A stretch of 64,000 nt of DNA from positions 35,776 to 99,775 of the forward strand of contig JBGATK010000001.1 of the NCBI GenBank assembly GCA_044229265.1, given 5' to 3'. The stretch is from Minisyncoccia bacterium (GTDB taxonomy: Bacteria > Patescibacteriota > Minisyncoccia > Phycocordibacterales > UBA9973). A model generated the notes under the pieces. It did no database searches and had not been told where the DNA came from. It saw only the letters and a list, made by a program, of their open reading frames with translations. Below, piece after piece: positions 6,892 through 54,115 of this stretch. Each line of letters opens with the position of its first letter. Position 1 is the first letter of the stretch. The position numbers and the translations under genes were made by a program.

Positions 6892-6899
6892 AAATTTTC

Positions 6900-6929
6900 C
6901 TTGTCCTCTATAGCTTTAGCGAAAGAGGA
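6900..6929 (+). repeat. Palindromic element copy: cttg tcctct-atagctttagcgaa-agagga
   Basis: 6-bp inverted arms around the GAAGCTTTAGCGAA-like core; member of the family listed in the findings. Confidence 0.6.
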
Positions 6930-6996: not shown

Positions 6997-8055
6997 TTAC
7001 ACAAAATTGACTTCTGGGGTAATAGTGATGCCGAATTTTTTATGGACAGCAGAGATGATTTTTTCAGCGAGGTTTAAAATATCCTGCCCAGTAGCTTCGC
7101 CATGATTCACTAATACTAAAGCTTGCTTATCATGAACTCCTGCAAAACCAAAAATTTGCCCCTTGAAACCACACTCCTCTATTAGCCACGCTGTGGGGAT
7201 TTTGTATTGTATTTTTTCCCCCTCTCCTTCCAGGAGAGGGGCTAGAGGTGAGGTAATGTCTTCTTTATAATGTGGCATTTGCGGATAAGTTTTCAAAAGT
7301 TCCAAAACTTTTTCTTGTGGCACTATAGTATTTTTAAAAAAGCTCCCGGCATTACCTAGAACCCTCCAATCTGGGAGCTTGCTTCTTCGAACAGCCTCTA
7401 CTGCATTTGCTACATCTTTTGATGTTTTTACTTCTAAATTATTTTGTATTAAATATTCTTTTAAAGCTTTATATTCAATATTTACTCTCGGCACTTTAGA
7501 TAATTTTAAAATTATCGCTGAAATAAAGTACTTGTCTTTAGCTTCTTTTTTAAAAATGCTATCTCTATATCCAAAAGAGCATTCATTGTTTTTAAAAACT
7601 TTTTTCTCTCCTGTAGATAATTCATAAGCTTCAATTTCATACAAAGTATCGCAAAGCTCTATGCCATAAGCACCAATATTTTGTATAGGCGCAGCCCCTA
7701 CAGTGCCGGGCACAAAAGCGAGATTTTCTATACCCCAAAAATTATGCTCCACAGAAAACAAAACTAAATCATGCCAAACTTCACCCCCCATGGCTCTTAA
7801 TAATACGAATTCTGGTTTTTCTTCAATAATTTCTATGCCTTTTAATTCATTTTTAATAACAATACCTTCGTAATCTTTGGTAAATAAAACATTACTACCG
7901 CCACCTAAAAACATATATTTATTTTCTTTAAAAATACTATTATGTAAAAGCTCTATTAAATCCTGTTCCGATTTTAAAAAAGTAAAAAATTTAGCAAATA
8001 CAGATATGCCAAAAGTATTGTGTTCTTTTAAATTAAAATTTTCTTTTAGTTCCAT
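6997..8055 (-). CDS. murB: UDP-N-acetylenolpyruvoylglucosamine reductase
   Basis: 352 aa; FAD-binding N-terminal domain (NTFGIS...LGGGSNVLF) and the MurB C-terminal domain. Confidence 0.85.
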   Translation of the reverse strand: MELKENFNLKEHNTFGISVFAKFFTFLKSEQDLIELLHNSIFKENKYMFLGGGSNVLFTKDYEGIVIKNELKGIEIIEEKPEFVLLRAMGGEVWHDLVLFSVEHNFWGIENLAFVPGTVGAAPIQNIGAYGIELCDTLYEIEAYELSTGEKKVFKNNECSFGYRDSIFKKEAKDKYFISAIILKLSKVPRVNIEYKALKEYLIQNNLEVKTSKDVANAVEAVRRSKLPDWRVLGNAGSFFKNTIVPQEKVLELLKTYPQMPHYKEDITSPLAPLLEGEGEKIQYKIPTAWLIEECGFKGQIFGFAGVHDKQALVLVNHGEATGQDILNLAEKIISAVHKKFGITITPEVNFV

Positions 8056-24046: not shown

Positions 24047-24073
24047 TCCTCCTACGCCAAAGGCTACGGAGGA
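24047..24073 (-). repeat. Palindromic element copy (variant, reverse orientation): tcctcc-tacgccaaaggctac-ggagga
   Basis: Arms tcctcc/ggagga; the core is related to ttcgccaaagcttc at 35370. Confidence 0.5.
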
Positions 24074-24110
24074 TAAATAAAAATTTAATAGTTAATATAA
24101 AATTAAATAT

Positions 24111-35363: not shown

Positions 35364-35389
35364 CCCTGCTTCGCCAAAGCTTCGCAGGG
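35364..35389 (-). repeat. Palindromic element copy (reverse orientation): ccctgc-ttcgccaaagcttc-gcaggg
   Basis: The core is the reverse complement of GAAGCTTTGGCGAA. Lies just 3' of the comM stop; may also act as its terminator (followed on the minus strand by tttt). Confidence 0.6.
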
Positions 35390-35395
35390 CAGGCT

Positions 35396-40267: not shown

Positions 40268-40274
40268 ATTTTTT

Positions 40275-40320
40275 CTTGCCCCGACCTTGCGTCGGGGTTG
40301 TGTCCATACCCGGTATGGAC
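40275..40320. repeat. pnp 5' leader hairpins: cttg ccccgac-cttgc-gtcgggg, then gtccatacc-cgg-tatggac
   Basis: Read directly; first hairpin 40279-40297 (with the cttg prefix, 40275-40297), second 40302-40320; GC-rich structures immediately upstream of the pnp ATG. Confidence 0.5.
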
Positions 40321-41549: not shown

Positions 41550-41585
41550 CTTGCCCCGTATGAAGCCTATGGCTTTCGTTCGGGG
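41550..41585 (+). repeat. GC hairpin element: cttg ccccg-(tatgaagcctatggctttcgtt)-cgggg
   Basis: Read directly; ccccg/cgggg arms as at 4641 and 40279. Confidence 0.45.
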
Positions 41586-41619
41586 TGTTTTATTACTGTC
41601 ATATATTTTATTAAAAATT

Positions 41620-41681
41620 CTTGTCCTGCGTAGCTTCTTGTCCTCCCGAAACTTTACGTGAAGGAGGATAGCGAAGCAGGG
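41620..41681 (+). repeat. Nested pair of palindromic elements: tcctgcgtagctt [cttg tcctcc-cgaaactttacgtgaa-ggagga] tagcgaagcaggg
   Basis: The outer copy is interrupted between gtagctt and tagcgaa (compare the intact copy at 47450) by a complete inner copy carrying its own cttg prefix. Confidence 0.6.
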
Positions 41682-42005: not shown

Positions 42006-42150
42006 GCTTATAATATAGCATATTTCATAAAAAAATGCAAGGTCTCTGCATTTAATGTGCAGACCGCAGTCCTGAACCGAGCTTTGCTCTGGTTTAGGGC
42101 AATACCTACCCCAAATATTGGGCGACACAATAATATGCTAAAATAATACT

Positions 42151-43098
42151 ATGAAAAACGAGTTATCTAACCTAAAAAGACAATTTCTAGAATACCTGGA
42201 AATAGAAAAAGGTTCTGCGTTGCGCACTATAGAGAATTATGACCATTATTTAACGAAGATTTTTGAAAATGGGGGTTTTGAAAAAGTAGATGATATCACT
42301 CCTGAAGCAATTCGTGAATATCGCCTCAAATTAAATCGCCAAATTAGTGGCAATAACAAAAAATCTGGCAAAACCACTAGCAAAAAAACTCAAAATTACT
42401 ACATGATAGCTCTGCGCATGTTTTTAAAATACTTAGCCAAGCGAGATATCACTGCTATGCCAGCCGATAAAATAGAACTTGCAAAGATTCCCGAACGTTC
42501 ACTCGACTTAATAACTCCCGCTGAACTCTCGCGCCTACTAAACGCACCTCTGCTTCGTCAAGACTTCGCAGGGCAAGCCAAAAATATAGACATAAAAACA
42601 CTTAGAGATAAAGCAATATTGGAATTACTTTTTTCTACAGGACTTCGTGTTTCCGAACTATGCTCACTGACAAATGACATAGATATAAATACCGAAGAGT
42701 TTGCAATTCGTGGAAAAGGCGGAAAGGTTCGCGTGGTGTTCGTATCCGATGAAGCACGCAGTGCTGTAAAAGCTTACCAAAATGCTCGCAAAGACATGAA
42801 TGATGCGATGTTTGTGCAAGTAGGCAAAGAAATAAAAAGCAAAGAACCTACCCCGCTGACCCGCCGATCAATCGAAAGAATTGTAAAAAGTTATGCTACT
42901 AAAGCTGGTATTTATAAAAAAGTTACCCCGCACGTACTGCGACACTCATTTGCCACTGATCTACTTAGTAATGGTGCGGATATTCGCAGTGTGCAAATAA
43001 TGCTCGGCCACGCTAGTATTTCAACTACTCAAGTTTACACTCACCTTACCGACAAACAACTTCGTGATACACATAAAAAATTCCACGGAAAAAGATAA
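42151..43098 (+). CDS. Tyrosine site-specific recombinase XerC/XerD-like
   Basis: 315 aa; N-terminal SAM-like domain; catalytic region ...RDKAILELLFSTGLRVSEL...HVLRHSFATDLLSNGADIRSVQIMLGHASISTTQVYTH. Confidence 0.85.
   Translation: MKNELSNLKRQFLEYLEIEKGSALRTIENYDHYLTKIFENGGFEKVDDITPEAIREYRLKLNRQISGNNKKSGKTTSKKTQNYYMIALRMFLKYLAKRDITAMPADKIELAKIPERSLDLITPAELSRLLNAPLLRQDFAGQAKNIDIKTLRDKAILELLFSTGLRVSELCSLTNDIDINTEEFAIRGKGGKVRVVFVSDEARSAVKAYQNARKDMNDAMFVQVGKEIKSKEPTPLTRRSIERIVKSYATKAGIYKKVTPHVLRHSFATDLLSNGADIRSVQIMLGHASISTTQVYTHLTDKQLRDTHKKFHGKR
42547..42573 (-). repeat. Degenerate palindromic element copy inside the xerC-like CDS (cctctgc-ttcgtcaagacttc-gcaggg)
   Basis: Core ttcgtcaagacttc against ttcgccaaagcttc at 35370; translates in-frame as PLLRQDFAGQA in a variable loop between the two Xer motifs. 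Confidence 0.4.
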
Positions 43099-47025: not shown

Positions 47026-48633
47026 TTATTTTCTAACTCCGTGCTTGCTATGCAATTTTTCTACCTCAGCTTCTTCAAGCTCTTCTTTTTTTTCTTTAGC
47101 TTTTTCGCCTAGGGCTCGCAGGTCTGCATCAGAAAGTTGCTCTAGTTCCCCTACTCTATTTTTTAAATATTCTATTTCATTCTTTTCTGGATTTTCCAAT
47201 ACTTCTTCTAGTAATGCATTTAATATCCATCCCATTCTCGGCCCCGGCTTCATTTGCATATCTTTCATAAGAAAATTTCCATCAATTTTTAATTGAGATA
47301 CCGATATAGGGTCCCGCAGGCATTCCTCTATCATCGCATGATATTTGCGCAAGCGGTAAGGTGCCTCTTTTTTGGCCATACCTACCCTGTCGCATTCTCG
47401 CACTTTCATTAAAGTCCAAATCGGATGTTCGTAAGAATCATCCGATTTGTCCTGCGTAGCTTTATGCGAAGCAGGACCCTTGTCCTCCGAAGCTTTAGCG
47501 AAGGAGGATACTTTCACAATTATTCGGCGCACTGCAGAAAGAGTGATCTGCTCTGTATCAGAGAAAAACATATGATTCCTCACCAAACTCTCCACCATAT
47601 TTATTTCATCACGAGAAAATTTCATCCGCTCCATTATCTTCTTTGCCATCCGCGCACCCACTACTTCATGACCATAAAATGTATAAGCTTTCTTTTCCCC
47701 CCTCCTGCGAGTTCTCGGCTTGCCTATATCGTGCATAAGGGCAGACATACGAATAACAAACGACCAATTTTTATCTGCCGCGTGGCCGAGTGCCTGAACT
47801 AAGTGTTCAAACACATCATACCTATGTGCACCTCCCTGCTCACAATTTATTCCTTCTTCGAGTTCTGGGATAATATATTTTAATAAACCAAATTTTTGCA
47901 ACATTCCAATTCCAGACATTGGATTATTCGACATAATTATTTTTACAAATTCATCTCTAATTCTTTCTTGCGAAATATTTTTTATCAAATCTGCATTTTT
48001 TACGATACTTGTCATCGTCTCGCCTGATATAGCAAAATCAAGTTCGCAAGCAAAACGAACTGCGCGAAGCATTCGAAGTGCATCCTCATTGAATCTCTCA
48101 TCCGCATTACCTACTGTTCTTATTACTTTGTCCTTTATGTCCTTTATACCCCCAAACATGTCTGTTATGCTTATTTTTTCTTTTGCACTATTAGACATAG
48201 CGAGTGAATTCACTGTAAAATCACGTCTTTTAAGATCATCTTCTATGTTTTGACTAAACCTTACCTCGTCTGGGTGCCTATTATCACTATATTTACCTTC
48301 TAGTCGATACGGAGTAACCTCTATAGTTTCATAAGAAACATCTTCTTCTTGTCCAGATCCGACTTGGACAGATGTTTCAAGTGAAACTTTAGGTATAAAT
48401 ACTGCCACAGTACCAAATTTATTTTCATAAACAGTTTTTTCAAATAAAGATATAATCTGATCTGGTGTAGCATTAGTTGTCAGATCCCAATCCTTTGGTT
48501 TTCTATCTAAAATCAAATCTCTAACACAACCACCAACTAAAAAGGCTGAAAAACCTCCCTGAGAGAGCTTTTCTATCACGATCAATACTTCTTTCGGAAT
48601 GTTTCTTGTGAAATTGTTTGAGTTATTTTCCAT
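47026..48633 (-). CDS. cca: CCA-adding enzyme / poly(A) polymerase-family tRNA nucleotidyltransferase with an HD domain
   Basis: 535 aa; head domain GGCVRDLILDRKPKDWDLTT; HD region HDIGKP; contains a low-complexity insert at residues ~371-393 encoded by the palindromic elements. Confidence 0.85.
   Translation of the reverse strand: MENNSNNFTRNIPKEVLIVIEKLSQGGFSAFLVGGCVRDLILDRKPKDWDLTTNATPDQIISLFEKTVYENKFGTVAVFIPKVSLETSVQVGSGQEEDVSYETIEVTPYRLEGKYSDNRHPDEVRFSQNIEDDLKRRDFTVNSLAMSNSAKEKISITDMFGGIKDIKDKVIRTVGNADERFNEDALRMLRAVRFACELDFAISGETMTSIVKNADLIKNISQERIRDEFVKIIMSNNPMSGIGMLQKFGLLKYIIPELEEGINCEQGGAHRYDVFEHLVQALGHAADKNWSFVIRMSALMHDIGKPRTRRRGEKKAYTFYGHEVVGARMAKKIMERMKFSRDEINMVESLVRNHMFFSDTEQITLSAVRRIIVKVSSFAKASEDKGPASHKATQDKSDDSYEHPIWTLMKVRECDRVGMAKKEAPYRLRKYHAMIEECLRDPISVSQLKIDGNFLMKDMQMKPGPRMGWILNALLEEVLENPEKNEIEYLKNRVGELEQLSDADLRALGEKAKEKKEELEEAEVEKLHSKHGVRK
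47450..47508 (+). repeat. Tandem pair of palindromic elements inside the cca CDS: tcctgc-gtagctttatgcgaa-gcagga, spacer cccttg, tcctcc-gaagctttagcgaa-ggagga
   Basis: Read directly; on the coding (minus) strand it translates in-frame as VKVSSFAKASEDKGPASHKATQD. Confidence 0.7.
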
Positions 48634-49666: not shown

Positions 49667-49737
49667 TGCGGGATAGGGGAATCGAACTCCTAACCTCAGT
49701 TTGGAAAACTGATGTTTTACCATTAAACTAATCCCGC
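49667..49737 (-). tRNA. tRNA-Gly (anticodon TCC)
   Basis: Acceptor GCGGGAT/ATCCCGC, anticodon stem TCAGT/ACTGA with loop TTTCCAA; the T-stem has one mismatch in my hand fold. Confidence 0.65.
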
Positions 49738-49770
49738 CTTCGCTAAAGCTTCGTCGGGCAGGCCCGCAAA
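49738..49770 (-). repeat. Degenerate palindromic-element copy between two tRNA genes (core ttcgctaaagcttcg, then cgggcaggcccg)
   Basis: The core is the exact reverse complement of GAAGCTTTAGCGAA. Confidence 0.45.
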
Positions 49771-52423: not shown

Positions 52424-54115
52424 ATGTATCTTATGAATCTAGATAAACACAACCCATCAAGAACCACTAAAATAAAAAAAATTGAGGAGGCTGAGGGCTT
52501 TGGACATATTGATAGTTTCGCAGATCTTAAAAACTCTTTAAATTTAGAAAAAAATGAACAAGGAGAAAAACCTACCGAAAACACAACAAAAGAAATTCTA
52601 GAGCGAGAAAAGGATGAGGCTCAAATTATCGAATGGCTAAAAAATGAAAAGATCGCGCAGATAGTAATTCATGGAGGCAAAAGAGAAAAAGGGGAAAATG
52701 GGGAAGATATTTGGGATTTAACTCCTGATTTAGATGCGCAAAGTGCTTCTATCTTTTTAAGTGAATACAATAAAAAGAAAGGTAAAGATCTTTACACAGA
52801 AAATGCTGTTTCTTCTATAGTACCAAAAGGCGGAAATGAGAAAGATTTAGATATAAATAAAGAAAAAGATGGTCTGCAAATTTGGCTAGATACTGGAAAT
52901 CGCTGGATGGAAGTAGAAAAGGACGGTGAAAAAAAGAAAATTTATTTTGATCATCATGGTGAAGGCAAAAAAAAATGGACTTCATCCACAGAAATGGTTT
53001 ACAACATGATGAAAAACGCAAATATACTAAAGGAAGAAAAGTGGATGAAAAATTATGTTCACAATTTAACCAGTTTTGATAACCTGGCTTATGCTTTCAG
53101 CAAAAAAGAACCTTGGACTACGGAAAAATTTCAACACGAATGGCCAAAAACACTAAACCATTTGGCTCGCGAAATGGAACCACTCGATGTTATAGAAATT
53201 TTCAAAAGAGGTATTGTTAGAAACTTTAACACTGAATTTACAGAAAAAGATTTAAATGGAGATATAAGCAAAATAGTATTAAAAAATGGAAGAACTCTAA
53301 AAGAACAAATTGAAAAAGAATCCAGTTTGGATCCAACAGTAAGTGAAGTTGCAAAAACTGAAGAAGCTATCCAAAATTCTGCTGTATATGCCATAAATGA
53401 AAAATTAGATATTACAGACACAAGAGTAGGTAATTTAATCTACAACAATATCCCAACAATAAATGGAAAAAGGAATATAATTCCTCATCATTTAGCATTC
53501 CTAGGAGCTAGAGCAAATAATTTTGATACTTATCTAATACTAAATCATCCTAAAGGTAAAGATAGAAATAGAACATTTTTTATAAATTCTAATTATCCAG
53601 GATTTGAAAAAGTATTAAAAAGATTAAAGAGACATAAAAGAATTAAACTTACCGACGTGCGTGGGGTAATGATTCACGGTGAGACAAACTTAACAGAAAG
53701 AGATTTTTTAGGAGAAATTGATCCAAAAATAATTGAAAATGCAAATTTTGCTAAAAATGGTGAACTCCGAAAAAATATCGAAAATGAAATATTAAAAAAA
53801 GAAAAAGCTAGAAATGAAAAAATTAATGAATCGGCGGAGAAAACAGAACCTGTGGTAGAAAAAGTAAAAGAAACAAAACCTGAAGCATTAGAAACTGCAC
53901 CTGTAGTAGAAGTAGAAAACAAAACAATAACTGAAGCAAAAGAAGAAAGTAAAATAGAAACAAAAACAGATATAGAAAAAGTACGCGAAGAAAAATTAAA
54001 AAAAATAGAGGAAATAAAAATTCGCGAAACAGAATTACAAACAAAAATTAAAGAGGTAGAAGCTAATCTGCAAAAAATTCTAGAAAAAATTGAGAAAATG
54101 GAGAAAAAAAATTAA
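52424..54115 (+). CDS. Hypothetical protein with a DHH-phosphoesterase-like N-terminal region and a K/E-rich coiled-coil tail
   Basis: 563 aa; candidate DHH motifs DLTPDLDAQSAS, IWLDTGNR and YFDHHGE spaced as DHH motifs I-III; C-terminus strongly K/E-rich. Weak call. Confidence 0.35.
   Translation: MYLMNLDKHNPSRTTKIKKIEEAEGFGHIDSFADLKNSLNLEKNEQGEKPTENTTKEILEREKDEAQIIEWLKNEKIAQIVIHGGKREKGENGEDIWDLTPDLDAQSASIFLSEYNKKKGKDLYTENAVSSIVPKGGNEKDLDINKEKDGLQIWLDTGNRWMEVEKDGEKKKIYFDHHGEGKKKWTSSTEMVYNMMKNANILKEEKWMKNYVHNLTSFDNLAYAFSKKEPWTTEKFQHEWPKTLNHLAREMEPLDVIEIFKRGIVRNFNTEFTEKDLNGDISKIVLKNGRTLKEQIEKESSLDPTVSEVAKTEEAIQNSAVYAINEKLDITDTRVGNLIYNNIPTINGKRNIIPHHLAFLGARANNFDTYLILNHPKGKDRNRTFFINSNYPGFEKVLKRLKRHKRIKLTDVRGVMIHGETNLTERDFLGEIDPKIIENANFAKNGELRKNIENEILKKEKARNEKINESAEKTEPVVEKVKETKPEALETAPVVEVENKTITEAKEESKIETKTDIEKVREEKLKKIEEIKIRETELQTKIKEVEANLQKILEKIEKMEKKN

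Follow-up and report, generated by a model that had tools for sequence, protein, structure and literature searches.

How did a gene for a Xer recombinase come to hold a segment that reads like a copy of a short intergenic hairpin repeat, and what does the segment do to the protein? The gene lies in a 64,000-nucleotide (nt) stretch of contig JBGATK010000001.1 (assembly GCA_044229265.1) of a Minisyncoccia bacterium; this whole stretch, with a G+C content of about 35%, is called the window below. An initial annotation had taken the segment for an in-frame coding insertion of the element found at position 35364, and for an older and more decayed copy of it. We find that the segment, here called the XerC copy, is a genuine, lineage-specific in-frame insertion of the window's hairpin repeat. 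The fuller reading, which we hold to be very probable, is that a near-consensus copy sits in a coil of the recombinase, was imported on a short patch of homologous recombination, and is carried as a tolerated passenger. The features concerned are these, R1 and R2 being covariance models described further on.

42151..43098, plus strand: the host gene, an intact Xer-type tyrosine recombinase of 315 amino acids (open reading frame (ORF), Pfam, alignment and PDB matches).
42548..42578, plus strand: the hairpin-repeat copy, 31 nt including the tail (5/31 mismatches to the 35364 copy; R2 51 bits).
42548-42553, plus strand: its 5' arm CTCTGC, the first two bases within the resident Pro133 codon.
42554-42567, plus strand: its loop TTCGTCAAGACTTC.
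42568-42573, plus strand: its 3' arm GCAGGG.
42574-42578, plus strand: its tail CAAGC.
42550..42579, plus strand: ten inserted codons, L134-A143 (LLRQDFAGQA), from protein, DNA and codon-level alignments.
42580..42627, plus strand: divergent 3' flank, a probable imported patch, with a left limit possibly as far as a lone mismatch at 42519.
35364..35395, plus strand: the reference copy ccctgc-ttcgccaaagcttc-gcaggg, loop TTCGCCAAAGCTTC, an intergenic, clean 32-bp insertion (R1 43.8 bits).

Re-reading of the sequence and of the ORF translation returned the letters of both copies as first described: the window at 42547-42573 is cctctgc-ttcgtcaagacttc-gcaggg, encoding PLLRQDFAGQA, and the protein around it runs ...ELSRLLNAP-LLRQDFAGQA-KNIDIKTLRDKAILELLF... 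The stem CTCTGC/GCAGGG forms five Watson-Crick pairs and one G-T pair around a 14-nt loop; the loop starts with TTCG and ends with CTTC, and an RCARG(C)-type tail follows the 3' arm, all of which are marks of the broad family. Positions 42548-42578 match 35364-35394 at 26 of 31 bases, with 5 mismatches. The window was shuffled 200 times under a first-order Markov model: one shuffle held a match to the 35364 31-mer with 8 mismatches, and the best match in each of the others had 10-14, typically 12-13. The resemblance proposed at first is thus far above chance, because the shuffles never approach 5 mismatches.

The linker between the Ala-Pro and LRD motifs is 17 residues long in the window protein and 7 in E. 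coli XerD, the difference of about ten that had been claimed, and a HMMER alignment opens a 10-residue gap in E. coli XerD (1a0p) and a 15-residue gap in Pyrococcus XerA at the insert. Such a length is not typical for the lineage: among the 93 close homologues in which the linker could be scored, from a comparison set of the 120 best homologues, 87 have 7 residues. The five closest homologues (P0002, with 98% ungapped identity, and P0003-P0006) are 305 amino acids long against 315 and lack exactly LLRQDFAGQA. At the DNA level, the sister strain L001 (the P0002 locus; GCA_964617005.1), about 96% identical to the window over roughly 17 kb, has GCA CCT followed directly by TCC GGC, where the window has GCA CCT CTG CTT CGT CAA GAC TTC GCA GGG CAA GCC followed by AAA AAT. 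The insert is not an assembly artefact: in Logan SRR28480387 (L192), assembled from a different sequencing run, 2,748 nt that span it agree with the window at every base. The claim of an in-frame coding insertion therefore stands.

To which kind of element does the XerC copy belong? A metagenome scan with the pattern CTTCGNCAAGACTNNNNAGGGCAAGC, built from two filled Xer alleles, gave 44 loci with 34 distinct copies, and none of the 44 loci is a Xer gene. The commonest form is CCCTGC-TTCGTCAAGACTTC-GCAGGG-CAAGC, to which the XerC copy is identical at 30 of 31 positions (CTCTGC for CCCTGC); it fits the subfamily consensus CCCTnC-TTCGYCAAGACTWC-GnAGGG-CAAGC, and its CTCT arm variant recurs in 2 of the 34 metagenome copies. 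As the pattern was itself derived from the XerC copy, the independent evidence comes from the 5' arm and the free stem pair only: CCCT, in bases that the pattern left free, stands ahead of the loop in 27 of the 34 copies, and Watson-Crick pairing at the free pair is seen in 26, with three pair types, which is stem-like behaviour. Covariance model R2 was made from 22 metagenome copies found with the XerC-type pattern, all of them outside Xer genes, and gives the XerC copy 51 bits (E about 3e-9). The 35364 copy was not among its training sequences and reaches 30.3 bits (E about 8e-5); because R2 recognises that copy independently, the two types belong to one broader family.

Covariance model R1 was built from 112 copies with the loop TTCGCTAAAGCTTC, all from other genomes. 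Scanned over the window at E<=10, it recovered seven other window copies and missed the XerC copy (E>10), which thus lies outside the narrow TTCGCTAAAGCTTC subfamily, the type of the 47478 and 49733 copies and, with one loop difference, of the 35364 copy. For this reason a single homogeneous family was given up in favour of separate subfamilies. The XerC copy is a near-consensus member of a sister subfamily with loop TTCGTCAAGACTTC, and its five differences from the 35364 copy are subfamily differences rather than decay, because it matches the sister consensus at 30 of 31 positions. L001 carries both the 35364 copy and the 49733 copy in a tRNA spacer and lacks the XerC copy, so that the XerC copy is the younger of the two in this lineage. 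Neither half of the phrase "older and more decayed" can therefore be kept.

The same frame, LLRQD[FYS]xGQA, is read from TTCGTCAAGACTTC-type copies in unrelated genes (L131/L136, L143, L146, L160, L161/L164), which by eye resemble those for methionyl-tRNA formyltransferase (Fmt), DNA polymerase IV (DinB), RadA, phosphoglycerate kinase (Pgk) and others. Only the CAA of this subfamily, which takes the place of TAA in the commonest loop, keeps the frame used in the Xer gene open. It was also seen that in several of these genes the peptide follows Ala-Pro, as in Xer.

The host protein has the two-domain Xer fold with the catalytic R-K-H-R-H-Y set. Precomputed annotation assigns PF02899 and PF00589 to the product; R166, the lysine of GKGGK, H261, R264, H287 and Y296 are invariant alignment columns; the top Foldseek matches are XerA (5hxy, 4a8e), XerD (1a0p), XerH and IntI; and phmmer against 4a8e, 5hxy and 1a0p gives E of about 1e-37 to 1e-39. 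An AlphaFold2 model (mean predicted local distance difference test, pLDDT, 76) has a helix at 123-131, a coil at 132-147 and a helix at 148-163, with pLDDT below 50 at 138-143. In the model the insert, residues 134-143, is in the low-confidence coil that connects the first and second helices of the catalytic domain, which supports insertion in a loop. The ten residues look like a tolerated passenger in the protein, because the loop is permissive and repeatedly hit, the frame is free of stops and the catalytic residues are unchanged. The consequence for the gene would be small, a working-looking recombinase with ten loop residues, from which annotators should not read a lineage-specific function. 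Directly upstream of the gene, the window also has a 62-bp insertion (42037-42098) that is missing from L001.

The same codon boundary has been used more than once. A second filled lineage (P0008/L002, 70% protein identity) carries LLRQDSLGQA of the same subfamily at this boundary, and its nearest relative, P0117/L193 (87%), is cleanly without the insert. Three further lineages have GC-rich palindromes of 18-21 bp there, after the conserved Ala-Pro: P0021 (L006) has GCCTGCGCAGGCAGGCCG, encoding ACAGRP; P0017 (L008) has GACTGCGCAGGCAGGCCG, with an xCAGRP-type peptide; and P0011 (L007) has an 18-bp perfect palindrome, CTGCCTGCCGGCAGGCAG, encoding DLPAGRQ. Each of the three has close relatives without an insert. 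By interpretation only, the P0021 palindrome might be read as arm plus arm plus CAGGC tail minus the loop. Elsewhere in the family, the Xer homologues P0007, P0013, P0065 and P0112 have peptides encoded by GC-rich DNA (PASHAGAKRLPG, HPHPTSPLAKGEEK, TRFARASSNG) in other loops and in one N-terminal extension, and repeat insertions may be common in Xer proteins.

It is also evident that the DNA beside the insert is unusual. With the insert excluded, 26 of the 918 positions of the Xer gene distinguish the window from L001, and 17 of these 26 differences fall within the 57 nt directly after the insert (binomial P = 5e-15). The divergent stretch, 50-80 nt long and mostly synonymous, reads AAAAATATAGAC...AGAGATAAAGCAATATTG in the window. 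The three linker codons after the insert change from SGT in L001 to KNI in the window; past them come six synonymous codon changes, several of two bases (CGC/AGA, CTC/TTG, CTT/TTA), and a lone replacement, the conservative M->I, in which I is the residue of most homologues. Judged by these changes, the patch resembles DNA that has been shaped by selection in a different, functional Xer gene. Compared over this stretch with the outgroup L004, L001 stands at 0.82 (0.84 gene-wide) and the window at 0.75, and KAMLELL in this region is common to P0002, P0003 and P0004. Because L001 keeps its normal divergence from L004 and matches the outgroups, it is the stretch of the window that is foreign.

Since 17 of the 26 differences cluster in 57 nt and are mostly synonymous, the filled allele was probably imported from a divergent Xer allele by homologous recombination, the patch measuring about 80-110 nt. 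A donor allele already carrying the element would have entered the window genome by short-patch recombination, with no fresh insertion here. If so, the patch would show directly that homologous recombination over short tracts takes place in an uncultured Patescibacteria-like lineage, the filled allele having apparently moved between lineages.

Several observations weigh against this account. No donor Xer allele with the window's exact patch was found, the metagenome scan having given no Xer gene. The left edge of the divergence is the insert itself, with a single mismatch (42519) in the 100 nt upstream, and such a one-sided edge is also expected from mutagenic insertion, though the synonymous bias argues otherwise. 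The XerC copy makes a weak hairpin: its folding energy as DNA, -1.7 kcal/mol, does not beat that of shuffles and falls short of their mean, and the miss by R1 has to be counted here as well. In addition, a search for other filled Xer alleles with a 68-residue protein fragment spanning the insert returned only 17 short unrelated fragments, and no clear divergence peak by the insert is seen in the second filled lineage (L002 versus L193) at that divergence. An edge of this kind invites the explanation that the element inserted afresh in the window genome and that error-prone repair synthesis at the site left the flanking substitutions, the more so as divergence runs in one direction only and other coding insertions have altered flanks, such as the one that replaced SPEN in the gene for the CCA-adding enzyme. 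However, of the seven codons that changed past the three of the linker, six are synonymous, several by two-base changes, and M->I restores the residue of most homologues; random repair errors would not be so filtered, and we regard a fresh insertion as unlikely.

Other readings are weaker still. If the XerC copy were an old copy of the 35364 element, long resident and eroding since, its 5 differences in 31, the G-T pair in its stem, its poor folding and its escape from the narrow model would all be accounted for, but the copy agrees at 30 of 31 positions with the consensus of a separate subfamily, known from 44 metagenome loci, and its lack in P0003-P0006 and in L001, where the 35364 copy is present, makes it recent; such an origin is very improbable. 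That the likeness arose by chance within a naturally variable linker is hardly credible: the linker residues do vary among homologues, but the linker length is fixed at 7 in most of them, the presence or absence concerns exactly 30 bp, and the shuffle statistics and covariance-model scores stand against it. An adaptive insertion, in which the residues or a hairpin in the mRNA or DNA modulate the recombinase or serve as its recognition site, might be suspected from inserts at the same site in at least four or five separate Xer lineages and from a filled allele reproduced identically in an independent assembly. Yet unrelated proteins also contain the peptide and its DNA is found in intergenic regions too, most relatives do without the insert, and a low-confidence coil, a weak hairpin and the lack of a dif-like 11-6-11 architecture do not suggest a function, so that we think adaptation quite improbable. 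Import of a near-consensus copy as a passenger is the reading that we retain.

How widely has this repeat entered the rest of the window? Two copies (49733-49763 and 47478-47508) were found at the threshold of the XerC copy and four further ones by looser scans and the covariance model. Besides the reference copy, the window holds:

47478..47508, minus strand: in-frame copy in a CCA-adding enzyme/HD gene, encoding SSFAKASEDKG (R1 52.4 bits).
47445..47477, minus strand: tandem second copy in the same gene, encoding PASHKATQDKS, loop TTCGCATAAAGCTAC (R1 23.8 bits).
47422-47444, minus strand: third small hairpin in the same gene.
49733..49763, plus strand: copy between tRNA-Pro and tRNA-Gly, the 5' arm overlapping the first tRNA-Gly bases (R1 42.2 bits; identical in L001).
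41617..41680, minus strand: intergenic nested pair between the NYN and S15 genes (inner copy 41636-41668, R1 20.1 bits).
24047..24078, plus strand: intergenic copy, loop TACGCCAAAGGCTAC (R1 16.5 bits, E 0.04).
6899..6929, minus strand: intergenic copy TCCTCTTTCGCTAAAGCTATAGAGGACAAGG (R1 28 bits, E 3e-5).

The window copies share a GC-rich stem of 6 bp, a loop of 14-15 nt of the form T(T/A)CG...CT(T/A)C and, behind the 3' arm, a tail of the CAAG/CAGG type. The 35364 copy stands directly after the stop of a minus-strand ComM/Mg-chelatase-like gene and is missing from L004, where GGAAAA is joined to CTAAG; the window has 32 bp between the two and no target duplication of more than 1 nt. The 47478 copy is missing from both L004 and L002. 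In the nested pair, the inner copy sits in the middle of the loop of the outer one, CCCTGC-TTCGCTA^AAGCTAC-GCAGGA-CAAG (the caret marks the place), and a block of about 140 bp with this pair is missing from L001 and L004. Comparison of the window with L001 gives four indels of at least 6 bp, three of them GC-rich insertions with hairpins.

Some further observations belong beside these copies. In the ORF of the CCA-adding enzyme (47026..48633), the two copies and the third hairpin (47422-47508) put 28 residues where relatives have SPEN, and in the L001 assembly a run of N coincides exactly with the place of the tandem copies, which suggests that the tandem repeats broke the assembly there. A further CAAG-tailed hairpin lies at 41550-41590, near the nested pair. 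A 47-bp insertion at 40274-40320, just upstream of the PNPase start and missing from L001, has two GC-rich hairpins, one of them being CCCCGAC-GCAAG-GTCGGGG followed by CAAG on the minus strand. A perfect GC-rich hairpin of a different kind, CCCCTCTCCTTCCAGGAGAGGGG, lies at 7219-7241 inside the minus-strand ORF 6997..8055 and may be another in-frame palindromic insertion. At window position 52589 (ORF 52424..54115), L001 has an extra in-frame segment of 57 bp, AT-rich and rich in Lys and Glu codons, which is not an indel of the hairpin type. Between the two close strains, hairpin repeats are a main cause of indels, and they write the same short peptides into unrelated essential proteins; repeat insertions thereby affect protein alignments, phylogenies, domain boundaries and assembly.

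To explore how far the repeat extends beyond this lineage, we scanned with CCNNCTTCGCYAAAGCTTCGNNGG, taking one genome per species, and obtained at least 120 loci (L009-L128). The counts that follow refer to the matches listed. Hosts of the TTCGCTAAAGCTTC loop include candidate phyla (Patescibacteria, Saccharibacteria, WWE3), Alphaproteobacteria (Bradyrhizobium, Mesorhizobium, Hyphomonadaceae) and Bacteroidota (Chitinophagaceae, Bacteroidales); other hosts are Verrucomicrobiota, Planctomycetota, Omnitrophota, Bdellovibrionota, Gammaproteobacteria and Geomonas. Cultured isolates are present among them (Bradyrhizobium, Mesorhizobium, Niastella, Geomonas), and 19 viral contigs (IMG/VR, L173-L191) carry the TTCGCTAAAGCTTC loop as well. 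The stem behaves as a stem: the pair outside the search pattern (n=112) is UA in 46 copies, CG in 43, UG in 7, GC in 4, AU in 3 and unpaired in 9, and pairing over all stem positions amounts to 92% of cells (77% in shuffles), with a covariation score that 0 of 500 shuffles reached. Of the 72 copies in hosts with no more than 50% G+C, about 20 are located within open frames of more than 300 codons, and three coding frames are common: xFAKASxxK, PPSLKLRRT and the antisense SAEALAKAD.

A tRNA gene lies within 150 nt of 22 of the 145 copies, 14 of the 22 copies being just downstream of it and in opposite orientation. Copies are strongly enriched beside tRNA genes, the rate expected from ordinary tRNA density being well under 1%, a figure estimated rather than computed. 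At one locus of a Bacteroidetes metagenome-assembled genome (MAG; L069, 7350-7960), three tandem units of 61 bp, each made of the 3' fragment of a tRNA and a copy inserted in its T-loop (AATC^GAA), stand beside an intact tRNA, and on the other side are tandem units of about 120 bp made of a tRNA 5' fragment and a copy of the element.

At gathering threshold, Rfam reported tRNAs only in the window and ten element-rich loci, with no family covering the hairpin. Full-text literature searches for the DNA strings of the element and for the encoded peptides gave nothing relevant, and topic searches gave only papers on the repetitive extragenic palindromic (REP), Rickettsia palindromic (RPE) and miniature inverted-repeat transposable (MITE) elements considered below. 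We tentatively suggest that the copies could form an undescribed cross-phylum family of CAAG-tailed hairpins of about 31 bp, with a near-invariant loop and a free stem, that settles at tRNA flanks, at gene ends and, in frame, in loops of housekeeping proteins across bacteria, where a small set of frames without stops (xFAKASxxK, LLRQDFxGQA, SAEALAKAD) would be used; the XerC copy would be one case of it. If this is true, the conservation of the loop across phyla would imply either a shared trans-acting machinery or very frequent horizontal spread, and an undescribed family of this kind would offer a tractable case for what moves REP-like elements without the REP-associated tyrosine transposase (RAYT).

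What could move it? The unit might travel as a single-stranded hairpin by means of a trans-acting enzyme that reads the structure, the loop and the tail; insertion would then proceed without target duplication and with a preference for single-stranded loops and tRNA flanks. That the family owes its primary spread to a REP-like process is possible but doubtful, and three results tell against it. A phmmer search with E. coli RayT found no match in the 64-kb window; among the matches listed, the same search over about 180 loci found one fragment only; and the GTAG/CGTC tag is missing at the stem flanks of the consensus on both strands. The fragment, a frameshifted Y1 transposase at about 2600-3014 of L017 in a Bacteroidales MAG, lies 2.5 kb from a copy and is not flanked by copies. 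Other candidates were set aside. Clustering of ORFs of at least 120 amino acids from 164 element-bearing loci revealed housekeeping families only and no recurrent neighbour gene. UPF0102/YraN occurs at five loci (two with an identical ORF), but 1-3 kb from the element. A mobile loop whose stem is copied from the target does not fit the empty site of the 35364 copy, which lacks both arms, and a thermodynamically special hairpin is not indicated, as most copies fold no better than shuffles.

Among known systems, MITEs make target-site duplications. The element differs from them, being about 31 bp long, a single stem-loop, and without a duplication of more than 1 nt at the one clean empty site (35364), and does not qualify as a MITE. 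MITEs are 70-300 bp long with terminal inverted repeats of 15-30 bp (PMC3733652). A likeness remains to bacterial MITEs such as those of Coxiella burnetii (PMC5896051), which are likewise non-autonomous and can land in ORFs and alter proteins. The hairpin elements of sponge mitochondria (PMC2800124) are likewise short GC-rich repeats that repeatedly invade AT-rich genomes; they are organellar and unrelated in sequence, and the comparison is one of kind only.

Closer in habit are the RPEs, which are roughly 100-150 bp long and known only from Rickettsia. The likeness is in-frame insertion into ORFs; the differences, as far as a comparison by description goes, are that our element is about 31 bp long, adds 10 residues, has no CGTC end and is not confined to one genus. 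RPEs keep the frame of the ORFs that they occupy, the products of which are probably still functional, and end in CGTC (PMC3733652). REPs are small GC-rich imperfect palindromes of 20-40 bp, present in many copies, mostly downstream of genes and sometimes intragenic (Di Nocera et al. 2013, PMC3733652); in two Xanthomonas species, different REPs occupy about the same site of recB, and described REPs have a GTAG or CGTC tetranucleotide at one end, those with GTAG accompanying RAYT transposase genes (PMC3733652). Our element differs in its constant end, the CAAG/CAGG tail after the 3' arm, which is neither GTAG nor CGTC, and in its range, for REP families are usually specific to a species or genus, whereas one loop of the element recurs across many phyla. 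It resembles REPs in size, in palindromic GC-rich form, in intragenic copies, in reuse of sites and in strain-variable presence, and by this analogy it may best be described as a REP-like hairpin repeat with in-frame genic copies, REP elements being the closest described kind.

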